Part shown: in pieces, positions 17,767 through 53,150 of the stretch
Position numbering within the stretch: position 1 is the stretch's first letter
Layout of the letters: each line of letters starts with the position of its first letter
Virus record (IMG/VR): IMGVR_UViG_2537562195_000010
Strand: one strand, 5' to 3'
DNA: 53,150 bases
DNA from: a virus
Taxonomy: Duplodnaviria > Heunggongvirae > Uroviricota > Caudoviricetes
Notes under the pieces: generated by a model
Databases searched by the model: none
The model's input: the letters and a program-made list of their open reading frames with translations, nothing else
What the model was told of the DNA's origin: nothing
Translations under genes and position numbers: made by a program

Positions 17767-17842
17767 GGCCCTTTAGCTCAGTGGTGAGAGCGAGCGACTC
17801 ATAATCGCCAGGTCGCTGGTTCAAATCCAGCAAGGGCCACCA
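17767..17842 (+). tRNA. tRNA with CAU anticodon (Met or lysidine-modified Ile2)
   Basis: Hand-folded cloverleaf: acceptor GGCCCTT/AAGGGCC, D-arm GCTC...GAGC, anticodon loop CTCATAA, T-arm GCTGG-TTCAAAT-CCAGC, encoded CCA. Confidence 0.85.
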
Positions 17843-17850
17843 TATCCATA

Positions 17851-17927
17851 CCGCCATTAGCTCATCGGGATAGAGCGCCAGCCTTCGAAGCTGGCTGCGC
17901 GGGGTTCGAGTCCTCGATGGCGGTCCA
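17851..17927 (+). tRNA. tRNA-Arg (anticodon UCG)
   Basis: Hand-folded cloverleaf: acceptor CCGCCAT/ATGGCGG, anticodon stem CCAGC/GCTGG with loop CTTCGAA, T-loop TTCGAGT, encoded CCA. Confidence 0.85.
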
Positions 17928-18700: not shown

Positions 18701-18950
18701 GTGTTAAATCCCTCACAATTCAGTAAGTTGACAGTTGCCTGTCAGACTGAGCATTTGTTAAAAAAATTTCGCATGGTGAATCCCCCTGTGCGGAGGGGCG
18801 ACTGGTGAACGGTATGATCTCTTTGATGATCGTAAGCGAGAATACGCGGGTTTGGTGTCACCGGGCTGAACTCACCGGGAGGCACCCGGCACCATGCTCA
18901 TGGTGATACAGAAATGCGGCTTCAGCCCCTCTCCGGAGGGGCTTTCTTAT
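18701..18950 (+). repeat. Structured repeat unit A (family of five; possible sRNA gene or promoter-terminator cassette)
   Basis: Contains the conserved blocks 'GTTAAATCCCTCACA', 'TTGTTAAAAAAA', hairpin 'GGTGAATCCCCCTGTGCGGAGGGGC', hairpin 'CACCGGGAGGCACCCGGCACC' and terminator 'GCCCCTC-TCCG-GAGGGGC-TTTCTT' (18925-18948). Confidence 0.7.
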
Positions 18951-19110
18951 GGACAAAAAAAGCCCGCGCTGGGAGACGCGGGCGGCAAGGAATAAACAAT
19001 AAAACGTGAAGTAATACTTCAACTGGCGAATAATACCCGACAGTAATCACTCTGCGCAATAGCGTGGCCTTTTTCGAATTGCGGGCTGTAGTCTCCCTTC
19101 TGCTGGGTGT

Positions 19111-20671: not shown

Positions 20672-20907
20672 ATGTTAAATGACTCACAATTCGGTTGATG
20701 GGCTATTGTCTGATCGATGGAAGTCTTGTAAAAACGAGCCAGCATAGTGAATCCCCCTGTGCGGAGGGGCGTCTGACATGGTCTCCATAGCGATGGTCAC
20801 AATACGCAGATTCAGTAGTCAGGCTGAATCTACCGGGAGGCACCCGGCACTATGCTGCTTATGGTGTATACATAGCGATCGGCCCCTCTCCGGAGGGGCT
20901 TTTTTTG
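20672..20907 (+). repeat. Structured repeat unit B
   Basis: Same conserved blocks as unit A ('GTTAAATGACTCACA', 'AGTGAATCCCCCTGTGCGGAGGGGC', 'TACCGGGAGGCACCCGGCAC', terminator 'GGCCCCTCTCCGGAGGGGCTTTTTTT'). Confidence 0.7.
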
Positions 20908-20929
20908 TGCGGGAAAAGGCTGTGTTGTT

Positions 20930-21175
20930 AAGTGTTAAATTCCTCACAGTTCAGATGGTTGATGCTTGCCTGTCTGAGGGGGAGTTGTTAAAAAAGTTCT
21001 GCATGGTGAATCCCCCTGTGCGGAGGGGCGACTGGTATGATTTGCATCTTTTCTGTTGTAGGCAATGCAAACGCGGGTTCAGGGACACCAGACTGGACTC
21101 ACCGGGAGGCACCCGGCACCATGTTCATGATGATACAGATACGCAGTGTCAGCCCCTCTCCTGAGGGGCTTTTTT
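20930..21175 (+). repeat. Structured repeat unit C
   Basis: Same conserved blocks; terminator 'AGCCCCTCTCCTGAGGGGCTTTTTT' at 21151-21175; variable central segment. Confidence 0.7.
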
Positions 21176-21202
21176 ATGCAGGAAAAACGCTGTGTTGTGA
21201 AA

Positions 21203-21436
21203 TGTTAAATTCCTCACAGTTCAGATGGTTGATGCTTGCCTGTCTTACGGGGAGTTGTTAAAAAAGTTCTGCATGGTGAATCCCCCTGAGCGGAGGGGCA
21301 TATCAGCGCAGGTGTTTCTACTCTATCCTTTCTGTGCGGGTTCAGGTGCTGATACTGAACTCACCGGGAGGCACCCGGCATCATGCATATGGTTAACAGA
21401 CAAGTAGCGAAGCCCCTCTCCGGAGGGGCTTTTTTA
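21203..21436 (+). repeat. Structured repeat unit D
   Basis: Same conserved blocks; terminator at 21411-21436. Confidence 0.7.
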
Positions 21437-21462
21437 TGCAGGGAAAAGGCTGTGTTGTGAAA

Positions 21463-21690
21463 TGTTAAATTCCTCACAATTCATGAGGTTGATGATTGTC
21501 TGATTGATGAGGAGTTTGTTAAAAAAAACGGGCATGGTGAATCCCCCTGTGCGGAGGGGTGATATCGTATCATTTCCTGTGTGGCCGACTGATATCACGG
21601 ACATTTGTTCACCGGGAGGCACCCGGCACCATGCAGTATACAGAGATTAGGCATACATCCAGGCTCCTCATCGCAGGAGCCTTTTTACAT
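21463..21690 (+). repeat. Structured repeat unit E
   Basis: Same conserved 5' blocks; central segment forms its own inverted repeat ('GTGATATCG...CGACTGATATCAC'); different terminator hairpin 'GGCTCCT-CATCGC-AGGAGCC-TTTTTA'. Confidence 0.65.
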
Positions 21691-21918
21691 GTAAAAAAAA
21701 CCGCTCCTGGGAAGAGCGGTTGGCAAGGAAGCAAGGAATAAATAACAAAACGTGAAGTAATTTATTCAGCACCCTAATAATACCTTAGAGTAATCACCTT
21801 GCGCAACTGTAAGGGCGTATTTCTTTTTTGCGGGCTGTTTTTCTGTGTGACTTTTGTGTTTCCGGAGGTCAGCCCGTGCCTTCTCTGACTCAGAACATTA
21901 TCCCGGCCGGGAGGATTC

Positions 21919-47224: not shown

Positions 47225-48060
47225 AAAAAAATCCCGCAGTGTTCGGCGCCTGCGGGAAGAGATACGAAGATTAACTTTAAGGAATTTTTCATTATTCTGG
47301 CAGATGAACTGTAACGCAGCGTGATTATGAGCACTACAGTCAGTGTGCGGAAATGTGAATAAACTCAGAATTTTTATTCACCGGAAGAGGATTGCCGGAT
47401 ATCGGTGGCAGAGGACAGAAGGCATCATGCCGGGTTCAGGGGATAAAAAAATCCCGCAGAACTCCGTGCTGCGGGAAGAGAACGATGTTGACTAACCTGT
47501 TGGCGTTTTATTTTTATTGACCCGCAGAAACTGTAACCTGCCGGAATGCACTCTGCCACGGAGAATGACGGAAAATGTGAAGAAAATCAGAGTTTTTATT
47601 TATCCCGTGCATTCGTCTCTGGCGACAGAGTGGCGTCAGTAATGTCCGTGATACTGAGGGGGGAATTAAAAAATCTCCCGTAATACACCTGGATATTGAC
47701 GGGAGAAACGAATAGTCACCTTAAGGAGTAGTTTTGATTATTGCCTGTAATCAGCGGGCGAATTGTAACGTATGGTGATTATGAGTGCCACAGGTAATTT
47801 GCAGAAATGTGAATAAATTCAGAATTTTTATTCACAGGAAGGGGCTGCGGGATATTGGTGGCAGAGGACAGAAAATATCAGGCCGGGTTTAAGGGATAAA
47901 AAAATCCCGCAGAGTTAGCGGAGCTGCGGGAAATAAACGATGAAGATTAACGTTATGGAGTTATTTTTCAGGCATCAAAAAAGTAACGCAGCGTCATTAT
48001 TGCGGCTACAGGCAATTTGCAGAAATGTGAAGAATTTCAGAAATTTTATTCCGTCATGAC
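47224..48060. repeat. Four tandem ~225-bp repeat units in the I-J intergenic region
   Basis: Each unit has an A-run plus GC hairpin ('AAAAAAATCCCGCAG-N8-10-CTGCGGGAA', a minus-strand terminator-like structure; 47224-47256, 47444-47477, 47664-47705, 47898-47932), a conserved 'GTAACGCAGCGT(G/C)ATTAT' block and an AT-rich inverted repeat 'GTGAATAAA-N9-TTTATTCAC'. Confidence 0.75.
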
Positions 48061-48061
48061 A

Positions 48062-48091
48062 CAGGCACCCTCCGGGGTGCCTGTTGTTTTT
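48062..48091 (+). terminator. Rho-independent terminator just upstream of J
   Basis: 'CAGGCACCC-TCCG-GGGTGCCTG' followed by TTGTTTTT. Confidence 0.5.
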
Positions 48092-48134
48092 GGGCATAAA
48101 CAGATTCAGACATCAGACAGGAGAGGGGGACAGA

Positions 48135-51100
48135 GTGGGTAAAGGGGGCGGCAAGGGGCACACACCGCGTGAGGCGAAGGACAATCTCAAATCCACGCAG
48201 ATGATGAGCGTGATTGATGCCATCGGTGAGGGACCGGTGGAAGGCCCGGTGAAGGGACTGCAGAGTATTCTGGTGAACAAAACCCCGCTGACGGACACGG
48301 ACGGTAATCCCGTGATACACGGTGTGACCGCCGTCTGGCGTGCCGGGGAGCAGGAGCAGACACCGCCGGAAGGCTTTGAGTCCTCCGGGGCGGAAACCGC
48401 ACTGGGTGTGGAGGTGACGAAGGCAAAGCCGGTGACGCGCACCATCACGTCAGCGAACATTGACCGTCTGCGGGTCACCTTCGGGGTGCAGTCACTGGTG
48501 GAGACCAGCTCAAAGGGTGACCGTAATCCCTCTTCTGTCCGGCTGCTGATTCAGCTTGAGCGTAACGGTAACTGGGGGACGGAGAAGGATGTCACCATTA
48601 ACGGCAAGACCACCTCGCAGTACCTGACGTCGGTGATTCTGAATAATCTCCCTGAGCGCCCCTTTAACATCCGGATGGTCAGGGTGACGGCGGACAGTAC
48701 CACGGACCAGCTGCAGAACAGAACGCTGTGGTCGTCATACACCGAAATCATCGATGTGAAACAGTGCTACCCGAACACGGCCATTGTGGGGCTGCAGGTG
48801 GATGCGGAGCAGTTCGGTGGCCAGCAGATGGTGGTGAACTACCATATCCGCGGCCGCATCATTTAGGTGCCGTCAAACTATGACCCGGAAAAACGCACCT
48901 ACAGCGGTATCTGGGACGGGAGTCTGAAACCGGCATACAGCAATAACCCGGCCTGGTGCCTGTGGGACATGCTGACCCACCCGCGCTACGGCATGGGAAA
49001 ACGCCTGGGGGCGGCGGATGTGGACAAGTGGGCACTGTATGCCATCGGGCAGTACTGTGACCAGACGGTCCCGGATGGTTTCGGGGGCACAGAGCCGCGG
49101 ATGACTTTCAATGCGTACCTGTCACAGCAGCGTAAGGTCTGGGATGTCCTGGGGGATTTCTGCTCGGCGATGCGCTGTATGCCGGTATGGAACGGCCAGA
49201 CGCTGACGTTCGTTCAGGACCGTCCGTCGGATGTGGTGTGGCCGTACACCAACAGCGATGTGGTGGTGGATGATAACGGCGTGGGGTTCCGCTACAGCTT
49301 CAGTGCCCTGAAGGACCGGCACACGGCGGTGGAGGTGAATTACACCGACCCGCAGAACGGCTGGCAGACTTCCACGGAACTGGTGGAAGACCCGGACGCC
49401 ATCCTGCGCTACGGGCGCAACCTGCTGAAGATGGACGCGTTCGGCTGTACCAGCCGCGGTCAGGCTCACCGTGCCGGACTGTGGGTGATAAAGACCGAAC
49501 TGCTGGAAACGCAGACGGTGGATTTCACGCTCGGGTCTCAGGGGCTGCGGCACACGCCCGGTGACATCATTGAAATCTGTGATAACGACTATGCCGGGAC
49601 CCTGACCGGCGGACGCATCCTGTCCATCGATGCCGCCAGCCGCACACTGACGCTGGACCGTGAGGTGACACTGCCGGAGACAGGTACATCGACGGTGAAC
49701 CTGATTAACGGCAGCGGTAAGCCGGTGCGCGTGGACATCACTGCACACCCCGCCCCTGACCGGATACAGGTCAGCATTCTGCCTGATGGCGTGGCGACAT
49801 ACGGTGTGTGGGGACTCTCCCTGCCGTCACTGCGTCGTCGCCTGTTCCGCTGTGTTTCCATCCGGGAAAACACGGACGGCACCTTTGCCATCACGGCGGT
49901 GCAGCATGTGCCGGAAAAAGAAGCCATTGTGGATAACGGGGCCCGCTTTGAGCCGATGTCCGGCTCACTGAACAGCGTCATCCCGCCGGCAGTGCAGCAC
50001 CTCACGGTGGAGGTGAGTGCCTCAGACGGCCAGTATCTGGCGCTGGCGAAATGGGACACGCCGCGGGTGGTGAAGGGCGTGCGCTTCAGTCTGCGCCTGA
50101 CCAGTGGCAGTGGTGAGAACAGTCGCCTGGTGACCAGCGCCATCACGGCGGACACGGAGTACCGTTTCAGTGGCCTGCCGCTCGGGGAATACACCCTGAC
50201 GGTCAGGGCGATAAACAGCTACGGCCAGCGGGGCGAACCTGCCACCACCACATTCCGGATTAATGCACCGGCGGCACCGGCCAGCATTGAACTGACGCCG
50301 GGCTATTTTCAGATAACGGCAGTACCGGTGCTGGCAGTGTATGACCCGACGGTACAGTATGAATTCTGGTTCTCAGAAAAACGCATCACGGACACGGCAC
50401 AGGTGGAAACCTCTGCCCGTTATCTGGGTACCGGCAGCCAGTGGAGCGTCTCCGGCCCGCACATTAAGCCGGGGAAGGATTTCTGGTTTTATGTGCGCAG
50501 CGTCAACCTGGTGGGGAAATCTGCGTTTGTGGAGGCCAGCGGGCAGGCCAGCAATGATGGTGAAGGGTATCTGGAAATTTTCCGTGGGCTGATAGATGAG
50601 GCGCTGCTGGGGAAGGCACTGAAAGAGCGTATTGATGCGTCAGCCCTGCGTACTGAGGTCACGCAACTGGAAGAAGACATCCGCCAGCGACTGGAGACGG
50701 ATGTTGCGGAAGTGACCCGAAAAATCGGGGAGGCGGAAAACAGCCTCACGCAGCTGGTTGCGAAAAAGAATGAGGACCAGACGCTGGCCATCGCGCAGGT
50801 GAGTCAGCAGGTGGACCGGGTGAGCAGTGAAATCACACAGACCGTCAGCCAGAGCACGGAGGAAAACGCCAGGCAGATAGCGCAGGTCCGCCAGTACGTG
50901 GATGACAAAGGGAGTGAAATCACCTCGACCACGGATAAAAAGCTGGAAGACCAGAGCGCCACCATACAGCAGATACAGCGGGTGCAGACAGACACAAATA
51001 ACGACCTGGCTGCACTGTACATGCTGAAGGTGCAGAAAACAAAAAACGGCATTCCGTATGTTGCCGGTATTGGTGCGGGGATTGAGGATGCTGATGGCCA

Positions 51101-51821
51101 GCCCCTGAGCAATATACTGCTGCAGGCGGACCGTATCGCGATGATTAACCCGGAGAACGGCAACACCACGCCGCTGTTTGTGGCGCAGGGGAATCAGCTG
51201 TTTATGAACGACGTGTTCCTGAAGCGACTGTTTGCAGTGAGCATCACCTCGTCCGGCAATCCCCCGACGTTCTCCCTGACGCCGGAGGGCAGGCTGACGG
51301 CCCGCAATGCGGACATCAGCGGACATATCAGTGCGAACTCGGGCACGCTGAATAATGTCGTGATAGCGGAGAACTGCACGATAAATGGCACGCTGAAAGC
51401 GGAGAACATTATTGGTGATCTTGTGAAATGTGCCGGGGTGGCTTTTCCGGTGGATGGTAGTTACCTTGCGAACGGTACACGAACGCTGACGGTGTATGAC
51501 GATCACAGCTTTGACCGGCAGATTATAATCCCGCCGATAATCTATGTCGGGTCAAAACAGGAATCCCGCACCAGTAATGACATCTGGACAGAGTGCTTCC
51601 TGCATGTTGATCAGAATGGACGCCGGATTTATTCAGGCAGGTCAGTGGAAGAGCCGGGAATTTTCAGCGGGATCATCGATATGCCAGCTGGCGGTGGTCA
51701 TATCACCCTGAGTTTTACCGTGAGCTCACGGCGTCAGAATAACAGTTGGGGCAGTTCACGAATCAGTAACCTTCAGGCGATAGTGGTGAAGAAAAACAGC
51801 GCGGGGATCAGCATCCGCTGA
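48135..51821 (+). pseudogene. Tail tip / host-specificity protein J with an in-frame amber (TAG) codon
   Basis: GTG start at 48135 ('VGKGGGKGHTPREAKDNLKSTQ...'); single reading frame from 48135 to 51821 interrupted only by TAG at 48864-48866 ('RGRII*VPSNYDP'; lambda J has Gln at the equivalent position as I recall); C-terminal receptor-binding region intact. Confidence 0.8.
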
Positions 51822-52019
51822 ACATCGCGCCCCGGGATTGCCGGAAGGAGACAAAAACCGTACAGTATGCGCGGGTGCCTTTGGCTGATGGCCGGAGGGA
51901 ACACCTGAAGGCCGGATGTGAAAAGGCCCCGGACAAAACATTCATGTTTAACCCGAGGCCTGACCATTCATCCTAAGCAAGTGAAAGGTTAGCGCCTCTC
52001 CGTAAAAGGAGCAAGCGTT

Positions 52020-52160
52020 ATGTCGCAAAAACCGTTAAAAACCACCGTGATTTGTATCACGGTAGTGCTCATTATCTGGATCACCCACAGTTCACTGTGC
52101 GAGTTCCGGTTCCGGATAGCGGGCGCGGAGATTGCGGCGTTCTTACAGTGTAAGCGGTAA
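52020..52160 (+). CDS. hok: Hok/Gef-family type I toxin
   Basis: 46 aa 'MSQKPLKTTVICITVVLIIWITHSSLCEFRFRIAGAEIAAFLQCKR'; TM helix plus 'SLCE(I/F)R.R....E(I/V)AAF' Hok signature; AAGGAG RBS; structured GC-rich 5' and 3' flanks as in hok/sok loci. Not in the ORF track (<60 aa). Confidence 0.7.
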   Translation: MSQKPLKTTVICITVVLIIWITHSSLCEFRFRIAGAEIAAFLQCKR

Positions 52161-52260
52161 GAAACCGTGGCGGGGGAGTGTACCTTCCCCGCCGACCGGT
52201 TGCTGAGGGTGATCAGCCGGATGGCACCTTTTTAACATCAATAAATCACAAATTTTACCG

Positions 52261-52290
52261 CAGGCCGGGAAACCGGTCCTGCGGTTTTTT
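52261..52290 (+). terminator. Rho-independent terminator after the hok-like gene
   Basis: 'CCGCAGGCCGGG-AAA-CCGGTCCTGCGG' followed by TTTTTTT. Confidence 0.5.
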
Positions 52291-52304
52291 TATGGAGGAA
52301 ATCC

Positions 52305-53150
52305 ATGGCAGTCAGAATATCGGGTGTGCTGAAGGACGGGGCCGGTAAGCCGGTACCGGGATGCACGATAGAGCTGAAAGCGCGCCGCACAACGGAGACG
52401 GTGATTGTCACCACGGTGGCGTATGGTCAGCCGGGGGAAACCGGCAGTTACAGTATGGATGTTGAGCCGGGGTTGTACCGGGTGACGCTGAACACGGAAG
52501 GGTACGCGCCGTCATATGTGGGTGACATTCTGGTGAAGGCTGACTCAGCACCGGGAACGCTGAATAAATTTCTGATGGACCTGGAGGACGCACAGTATTA
52601 CCCGAAAGCCCTTGCAGAGCTGGAAGCGGTGGCCGCGGAAATCCTGAAACGTGCGGAAGCGTCAGCGGCGAGTGCAGAGGAAGCGAAGAAACGGGCAGAG
52701 AATGCGCGGGGACCGAAGGGGGATAAGGGAGACACGGGGCCACAGGGTATTCCCGGGCCAAAAGGCGATACCGGCGAGCGGGGGCCAAAGGGTGAGCGTG
52801 GTGAGGCAGGCCCACAGGGGGTACAGGGGCCGCGGGGTGAAAACGGCCCCGTGGGACCGCAAGGAGTGCCGGGTATTCAGGGGCCTGCTGGTCCTGCGGG
52901 CCCGCGAGGTGAAACCGGAGCCAGAGGCGAAAAAGGAGAGCCGGGAGATCCCGGAGGACCTCCGGGACCAAAAGGTGACACTGGCCCCAGAGGGGAGCCG
53001 GGGCCTCAGGGCCCGGCAGGTCCGAGGGGACCTGCCGGAGAGAGAGGGCCGCAAGGATTGCAGGGTGTGGCAGGGGAGAGAGGCGATACAGGTCCGGCTG
53101 GTCCACAGGGTATACCTGGACCTCCGGGACCAACAGGTAGCGTCGGTCCT
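52305..53150 (+). CDS. Side tail fibre protein (Stf-like) with collagen-like Gly-X-Y repeats; 3' end outside window
   Basis: ATG at 52305 with GGAGG RBS; '[28 protein letters not shown]...' parallels the lambda Stf N-terminus; from ~52720 a long (G-X-Y)n run '[37 protein letters not shown]...'; open to the window end, which is why it is absent from the ORF track. Confidence 0.8.

Follow-up and report, generated by a model that had tools for sequence, protein, structure and literature searches.

A small toxin gene lying between the tail tip gene J and the side tail fibre gene (stf) most probably belongs to a hok/sok-type type I toxin-antitoxin cassette of ~380 bp (positions 51852-52228), which sits as a moron in a lambdoid prophage of Escherichia coli, in the J-stf (lom) slot. 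We put the probability of this reading at roughly 85%. The features assigned are collected in Table 1, with positions given in the window, i.e., the whole stretch of 53,150 nucleotides that was analysed (IMG/VR record IMGVR_UViG_2537562195_000010). The locus is already known; it is a type I toxin-antitoxin cassette of the Hok family, annotated in RefSeq and catalogued, that occupies a moron slot. Considered as a gene, it contributes no novelty, and it is ordinary apart from the missing mok in its branch.

Table 1. Positions of the features assigned in and around the hok/sok-type locus and elsewhere in the window
Feature	Position	Strand	Remarks
Two tRNA genes	17767-17839, 17851-17924		upstream of the STnc100 copies
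STnc100 copies	18742-18954, 20713-20908, 20972-21181, 21243-21439, 21503-21692	+	RF02076
Tail tip gene J	48135-51821	+	left flank; stop ends at 51821
hok promoter (predicted)	51838-51866	+	-35 TTGCCG (51838-43), 17-nt spacer, -10 TACAGT (51861-66)
Full-length hok mRNA	51873-52291	+	predicted ends; +1 at ~51873, terminator 52257-52291
tac (5' translational activator element)	51873-51889	+	GGGUGCC...GGCUGAU; pairs with fbi in the MFE fold
Sok-like antisense RNA (candidate), ~58-63 nt	51978-51916	-	free 5' part, terminator hairpin 51960-51925, U-run
ucb-like box	51921-51930	+	AAAAGGCCCC; alternative tac partner after 3' trimming
SDmok-like box	51955-58	+	GAGG; within the sokT hairpin
Sok-target (sokT) hairpin of the truncated mRNA	51955-51998	+	loop CCUAAGCAA with YUNR motif; includes the dcb arm
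Position homologous to the mok start	51970-51972	+	reads ATC; stop after 4 codons
Sok promoter (predicted)	52014-51986	-	-35 TTGCTC (52014-52009), 17-nt spacer, -10 TAACCT (51991-51986)
dcb / anti-SD	51992-52001	+	GCGCCUCUCC; partner of the hok SD in the fold of the full-length RNA
hok Shine-Dalgarno (SD) sequence	52006-52011	+	AAGGAG; 8 nt ahead of the ATG; read from the sequence
hok CDS	52020-52160	+	46 aa, Hok/Gef family toxin; peptide MSQKPLKTTVICITVVLIIWITHSSLCEFRFRIAGAEIAAFLQCKR
fbi (fold-back inhibitory element)	52212-52229	+	AUCAGCC GGAU GGCACCU; partner of tac
Intrinsic terminator	52257-52291	+	also the terminator at the lom slot's right boundary
Side tail fibre gene (stf), N-terminal part	52305-53150	+	right flank; ATG at 52305, runs off the window

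The 46-aa product matched the Pfam HOK_GEF profile (PF01848) with 43.5 bits against a cut-off of 22 (E = 2.4e-11), the alignment covering profile positions 8 to 42 of 42, and also matched PHROG 251, a family of the "moron" category (E = 3.4e-21). It is identical to WP_000078853.1, a "Hok/Gef family protein." All seven of the widely conserved Hok residues are present (M1, C12, T14, L26, C27, E28, and E37); as listed in a preprint on Hok homologs, the residues kept in >80% of the peptides are M1, C16, T18, L30, C31, E32, and E41 in the numbering of its logo (bioRxiv 10.1101/2025.08.07.668861). A single hydrophobic helix near the N terminus is placed at residues 8 to 22 or, more widely, 5 to 24 (Kyte-Doolittle 15-residue mean of 2.2 to 2.5 for the latter). 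Among relatives, the length of 46 codons is retained, and dN/dS ranges from 0.17 to 0.7 at dS values up to ~1. The notion of a chance small ORF in a structured spacer or terminator region between J and stf, in favor of which the small size of the ORF and nothing more can be cited, is refuted by the Pfam and PHROG matches and by a match of the leader to Rfam (E = 6e-10). Thus, the 46-aa Hok/Gef ORF and the good ribosome-binding site claimed in the preliminary description both stand (AAGGAG, 8 nt from the ATG), and the alignment it had proposed as a check upholds homology to hok/sok loci at the protein and RNA levels.

Scores against the NCBIfam models of the HokA equivalog and of a Hok subfamily (NF007290 and NF007279) did not reach the cut-offs (38.2 versus 89 bits and 37.0 versus 73 bits). 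Because they fall so far below, the protein is a Hok of a separate branch rather than HokA or a member of that subfamily. A search across the window for a second hok locus found none. Running nhmmer with the family alignment gave one match in the window (E = 1.4e-113), a figure that is partly circular, as the window sequence is itself a row of that alignment.

The toxicity test suggested for the ORF has, as far as the preprint text goes, effectively been reported already for the exact peptide. Both coding sequence and peptide are identical to entry 79_1563 (plasmid LRP163) in Table S2 of the preprint, where this coding sequence is among the homologs chosen for toxicity testing. According to its text, 42 of the 45 homologs tested were toxic, and those named as nontoxic are 19_179, 60_1482, and 69_1540 (bioRxiv 10.1101/2025.08.07.668861); toxicity of the 79_1563 peptide is thereby implied. 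As described there, the assay used a heterologous SD sequence and a heterologous promoter. Prophages are reported to be enriched in Hok genes, with 6290 homologs in IMG/VR, and the authors of the Hok catalogue state that identification of mok or Sok was not attempted.

The placement of hok between J and the side tail fibre gene, as first described, is confirmed by RefSeq, which gives the order gpJ, Hok/Gef family protein (WP_000078853.1), and prophage tail fibre at the identical E. coli locus. The J-hok-stf order recurs in 34/34 close IMG/VR relatives, even with a J C terminus that is only 48 to 71% identical. Lambda has the order J-lom-orf401 at the same place, and the junction of terminator and stf ribosome-binding site 3' of hok aligns with the lambda junction between lom and orf-401; thus, the cassette sits exactly in the lom slot, in agreement with the original proposal. 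Lambda lom itself lies directly past the J stop and before the terminator and the stf ribosome-binding site, and it is likewise an independent transcription unit with a GC content lower than that of its neighbors. The cargo of lom, in contrast, is an outer-membrane protein instead of a toxin with its antitoxin. Phages of the 933W type have lom and the 46-aa hok next to each other.

The surroundings of the ORF had also been called GC-rich, which is wrong: the GC content of the cassette is 52.7%, compared with a window mean of 51.8% and values of 58.6% for J and 63.9% for stf. A GC content below that of the flanking genes fits an inserted cassette. As expected of a moron in the J-stf slot, the cassette lies between the J stop and the stf start, has a predicted promoter and a terminator of its own, and deviates in composition from the flanks. 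The interval initially outlined (51900 to 52300) does fall on the locus but leaves out its promoter along with the initial 27 nt of the mRNA, such that the start has to be placed ~60 nt earlier. A search of the literature turned up no account of a hok gene in the J/lom slot.

Two further observations concern the flanking genes. J contains an in-frame amber stop (TAG) at 48864-48866, where gpJ of E. coli RM10466 (97.7% identical) has CAG (Gln244); this copy of the prophage therefore has a truncated tail tip gene, reflecting either a defective prophage or a sequencing error. In stf, a long run of collagen-like Gly-X-Y repeats begins ~130 codons in (window positions 52700 to 53150).

At the nucleotide level, homology with hok/sok of plasmid R1 and with hokC/sokC and hokB/sokB of E. 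coli K-12 extends from the promoter through fbi. The R1 sequence used in this comparison was verified as 100% identical against plasmids. Homology between the J-slot, post-lom, and post-ogr contexts stops just past the fold-back element, which delimits a mobile unit of ~380 bp (51852-52228). Rfam model RF01794 (hok leader/Sok) matches positions 51873 to 52031 over its full length, from model position 1, with 51.1 bits (E = 5.9e-10); the E value is still significant, but the score misses the gathering score of 59 bits, and the match was not in the gathering run. Despite its name "sok," the model in fact covers the sense leader, from the +1 position to the hok ATG. The 5' end of the mRNA, GGGTGCC, is invariant in the 20 nonredundant relatives of our comparative alignment. 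The 420-nt transcript (51873-52292) has a minimum free energy of -189 kcal/mol versus -137 ± 5.7 kcal/mol for shuffled sequences (z = -9.06), which bears out the early impression of a highly structured locus.

A consensus promoter scan of both strands found no promoter. The predicted hok promoter matches 8 of the 12 consensus positions and was therefore missed by a scan set at 9/12. In the alignment, its -10 element, TACAGT, falls on TATAAT, the -10 box of K-12 hokC, and every relative reads TAnnnT there. Both the hok and the Sok promoter calls are predictions drawn purely from homology and conservation.

A search for sok, likewise suggested at the outset, places a putative Sok-like unit at the very position that SokB and SokC occupy in the annotation of E. 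coli K-12. Transferred to the window, the annotated 5' ends of SokC and SokB fall on 51978 and their 3' ends on 51916, and the candidate RNA between them is predicted to fold at -22 kcal/mol (z = -2.7) into a free 5' tail and a terminator hairpin, the latter being the complement of 51925-51960 and followed by a U-run. By consensus, the predicted promoter is weak (6/12 positions). Across 20 diverged loci, each of the six positions of its -10 hexamer is either invariant or conserved to at least 90%, and the -35 box is conserved as well. The predicted promoter is positionally homologous to the R1 Sok promoter, TTGCGC-17-TATCCT.

The fold-back elements were located by alignment, as had been envisaged, and the predicted closure of the mRNA by tac and fbi is supported by covariation. 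Among the 20 relatives, 96.8% of the tac/fbi cells are paired, versus 29 to 45% with the partner slid along the alignment. The second (inner) helix shows compensatory changes in 4/4 pairs, and cells with double changes number 29, compared with 9.0 ± 2.3 in shuffles; the observed value was reached in 0/500 shuffles. In the fold of the 3'-truncated RNA, positions 51873-82 pair with 51922-30 (tac/ucb), a helix that is 89.5% paired among relatives and includes one compensatory pair (U-A to C-G). The truncated-state structure as a whole (tac/ucb plus target hairpin) has 84.5% of cells paired, versus 28 to 55% when slid, and 5 pairs with double changes, in a test that leans in its favor, the structure having been derived from the window sequence itself. 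The sokT hairpin is seen in the truncated fold and shows compensatory changes in 4 pairs.

In the MFE and consensus folds, dcb pairs with the hok SD, while the truncated fold moves dcb to 51955-65. The predicted unpaired probability of the SD is 0.00 in the full-length RNA, 0.06 in the truncated RNA, and 0.00 in the truncated RNA with the Sok site blocked. In this equilibrium calculation, SD accessibility changes as the model expects for the window and most of its relatives; the change is small and not decisive.

The expectation that mok could also be located by alignment was disappointed. The mok ATG codons of R1, hokC, and hokB all align to window positions 51968 to 51972, where ATC stands in place of the start codon and the frame is closed; no canonical mok ORF is present there or in 19 relatives. 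No ORF starting with ATG, GTG, or TTG enters hok from upstream in the window, nor in most of 19 relatives, and the few exceptions are unconserved. A search for mok in three frames, extended to leader ORFs that are short or have a near-cognate start and that stop at the conserved UAG, yielded nothing conserved. Within the part of the literature covered, no description of a mok-less hok branch was found. In R1, hok translation depends on mok (PMC9841398). Because a canonical mok ORF is missing here, hok translation must start directly at its own SD, under control that would be purely RNA structural.

Loss of the mok start might, however, leave hok untranslatable, with the RNA elements and the ORF inherited as a neutral passenger or as an sRNA-only locus. 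A silent relic of this kind would be in keeping with the ATC codon followed by a stop after 4 codons, with the lack of a conserved upstream ORF entering hok among relatives, and with a hok SD that is mostly paired in all predicted states; one relative (L050) even has a frameshifted hok. Yet mok is absent branch-wide, and the 46 codons, the conserved residues, and a dN/dS of <1 have been kept at dS values up to ~1. The hok ORF is almost invariant in 27 close copies, the regulatory helices are kept by compensatory changes, and the preprint account implies a toxic peptide. We consequently regard a silent relic as improbable.

A short ORF with a weak start could instead replace mok, in that a ribosome ending at UAG 51990-92 would melt the hairpin between anti-SD and SD. 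Two starts are conceivable in the window, AUU 51966, which lies 7 nt past the GAGG box, and GUG 51981; both are in frame with this UAG, which is part of a near-invariant GGUUAG directly abutting the anti-SD. Moreover, translation of mok past the hok start is not needed in R1 (PMC9841398). These starts are nevertheless unconserved, since in relatives of the 933W type a start-like codon is lacking or an in-frame stop is present, and CUG is all that stands next to GAGG in several window-type variants. The segment varies in a hairpin-compensatory and not in a codon-wise manner, and GGUUAG doubles as the Sok -10 box, such that its conservation is explained without a stop codon. A cryptic leader ORF is hence very improbable.

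For the preferred reading as a hok/sok-type cassette, we propose a scheme in which the processing steps, the dependence on RNase III, and the RNA stabilities would follow the R1 literature (PMC9841398). A weak constitutive promoter would give rise to a stable, closed, and untranslatable full-length hok mRNA. Slow 3' trimming would remove fbi and free tac, whereupon tac would capture ucb and the Sok-target hairpin would form. The freed GAGGCC arm could then pair with dcb, such that the anti-SD is drawn off and the hok SD loosened; because the accessibility effect is small, this step is only weakly suggested. As long as the prophage is present, abundant and unstable Sok would pair with 51916-51978, leading to RNase III decay and returning dcb to the SD. 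Once the supply of Sok stops, Hok would be made and the inner membrane depolarised. The supply could stop by prophage loss or, after induction, by late transcription that comes from J and runs convergently over the Sok promoter. The latter is a speculation prompted by the loss of sokW RNA (PMC8621323): as the locus is sense oriented in the late tail operon and the Sok promoter is opposed, late transcription could silence Sok. The points against the cassette reading are the lack of mok, the weak promoters (8/12 and 6/12), the small gain in SD accessibility, the Rfam and NCBIfam scores below their cut-offs, and the heterologous SD and promoter of the reported toxicity assay.

The layout is shared to a large extent with hok/sok (parB) of plasmid R1, including a Hok/Gef toxin, homology from the +1 position to fbi, closure by tac/fbi, the tac/ucb switch, and dcb. 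As in R1, the Sok promoter predicted here overlaps the hok SD region, and the terminator hairpin of the candidate Sok is complementary to the ucb/SDmok hairpin. In contrast, R1 Hok is 52 aa long and ~36% identical to the 46-aa Hok over its annotated part, and R1 has a 70-codon mok that is required for hok, where the locus described here has ATC and a closed frame. The R1 locus is plasmid-borne and acts in postsegregational killing, whereas the present one is phage-borne. For hokB/sokB and hokC/sokC of E. coli K-12, the leader alignment is close enough to transfer the Sok ends and the mok starts, and hokB likewise has the GGGUGCC...GGCACCC end pairing. Unlike the locus in the window, hokB and hokC have annotated mok ORFs, encode proteins of 49 to 50 aa that are 35 to 39% identical, and are chromosomal rather than part of a phage tail operon.

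The 46-aa Hok loci of 933W/Sp5-type Stx phages and P2-like prophages (cluster 72 in the preprint) have the same ORF length, with 59 to 63% amino-acid identity, and are also phage morons. They share the layout of tac, fbi, ucb, predicted Sok promoter, and terminator and are likewise without mok. They differ in their slots, after lom or ogr as opposed to in place of lom, and in their downstream terminators; furthermore, they fall into a different 60% cluster from that of the present locus in the Escalera-Maurer preprint, 72 versus 79 (10.1101/2025.08.07.668861).

Another hok/sok locus on a lambdoid prophage is hokW-sokW of Sakai prophage 5, a toxin-antitoxin pair of type I that relies in part on RNase III and Hfq (Takada et al. 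2021, PMC8621323). It speeds lysis and doubles phage release after mitomycin C, a treatment upon which sokW RNA vanishes (PMC8621323). By analogy, hokW-sokW is a plausible model for the role of the present locus. HokW differs, however, in its length (51 aa), its sequence (MKQQKAM...), and its membership in the HokD cluster, and ~13 kb separate it from the 46-aa locus that this phage also has. Because hokW is a different locus, the experimental results do not transfer directly. Equating the 933W/Sp5-type relative with hokW was considered and rejected, as the primers of Takada et al. encode MKQQKAM...DYESEK and map ~13 kb away. Two different hok loci are present in Stx phages of the Sp5/933W type: one, of 46 aa, follows lom, and the other is hokW, of 51 aa; in AP000363.1 (VT2-Sakai/Sp5), loci are found at 44531-44905 and ~57778-57827. 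The ORF of the 46-aa Hok bears the PHROG label "MokW-like host killing"; it is neither Mok nor HokW.

The locus recurs, as an identical stretch of 511 bp, in complete genomes of E. coli, most of them from STEC and bovine isolates; RM10466 (NZ_CP028381, 1357.1-1357.8 kb) is one example. Identity is 100% in at least 15 E. coli genomes and 99% or more in 46, and the match extends over at least 80% of the query in 121; in RefSeq, the locus is labelled "Hok/Gef family protein" in >100 E. coli genomes. Phage 1720a-02 carries it at 96.9% identity, labelled as hypothetical. Related loci were gathered by a search with a four-sequence Hok alignment. More distant relatives show 59 to 74% amino-acid identity and ~77% nucleotide identity from the promoter spacer to fbi. 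Their slots lie after lom in 933W/Sp5-type Stx phages and after ogr in P2-like prophages. P2-type copies of hok were also found on contigs labelled as a Planococcaceae MAG (L009), Vagococcus sp. (L010), and Xanthomonas pisi (L012), labels that most likely reflect contamination or misbinning rather than true hosts. In relative L050 (1117-1251), hok is frameshifted (MSQKPL...IAGRGDCGVLTV, followed by a stop), which indicates that some copies of the cassette are decaying.

Variation among 27 near-identical J-slot copies is concentrated in the Sok region, with 26 variable columns in the 80 nt from 51910 to 51989 versus ~10 in the 141-nt hok ORF. The ORF and the promoter/SD block (51990-52049) are almost invariant, and the sokT hairpin is the most variable segment. 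Several distinct target-hairpin alleles occur, each internally compensated. Such a pattern would be consistent with selection acting on the specificity of the antisense RNA, or with recombination shuffling the alleles; no description of it was found in the part of the literature covered. A broader proposal, tentative and to our minds rather unlikely, is that the phage-borne 46-aa Hok branch (this locus and the 933W and P2 types) is mok-less, with Sok acting only by way of RNA refolding, in which dcb would alternate between the SDmok-like box and the hok SD, and RNase III decay and with Sok and its target perhaps under diversifying selection.

Other regions of the window also contain features resembling small RNA genes. 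The I-J intergenic region (47225-48134) is 910 nt long, compared with ~60 nt in lambda, and has a repeat unit of ~220 nt in four copies, together with a terminator-like motif on the minus strand (CTGCGGGATTTTTTT) in three. These repeats look like an array of small RNA genes. Rfam gave only a weak GcvB-like match in this region (E = 0.69). A 2026 preprint describes the prophage sRNAs PasA/PasC and AgvB adjoining tail genes, near Sok matches, and the I-J array may be related to them. Five plus-strand copies of the prophage sRNA STnc100 (RF02076; 119 to 172 bits), four of them in tandem, are located downstream of two tRNA genes.

Taken together, these data show the lom slot to be a site of cassette exchange that is able to carry a toxin-antitoxin module. 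The natural mok-less hok leader asks whether mok is dispensable when an RNA switch alone gates the SD, a matter that the Hok catalogue's authors explicitly left open. Cassettes that are otherwise identical but differ in their Sok/target hairpins form an allelic series, which constitutes a test set for antisense specificity and for prophage cross-talk in STEC. If diversifying selection on Sok and its target is real, hok/sok cassettes on coresident prophages would not cross-neutralise one another.
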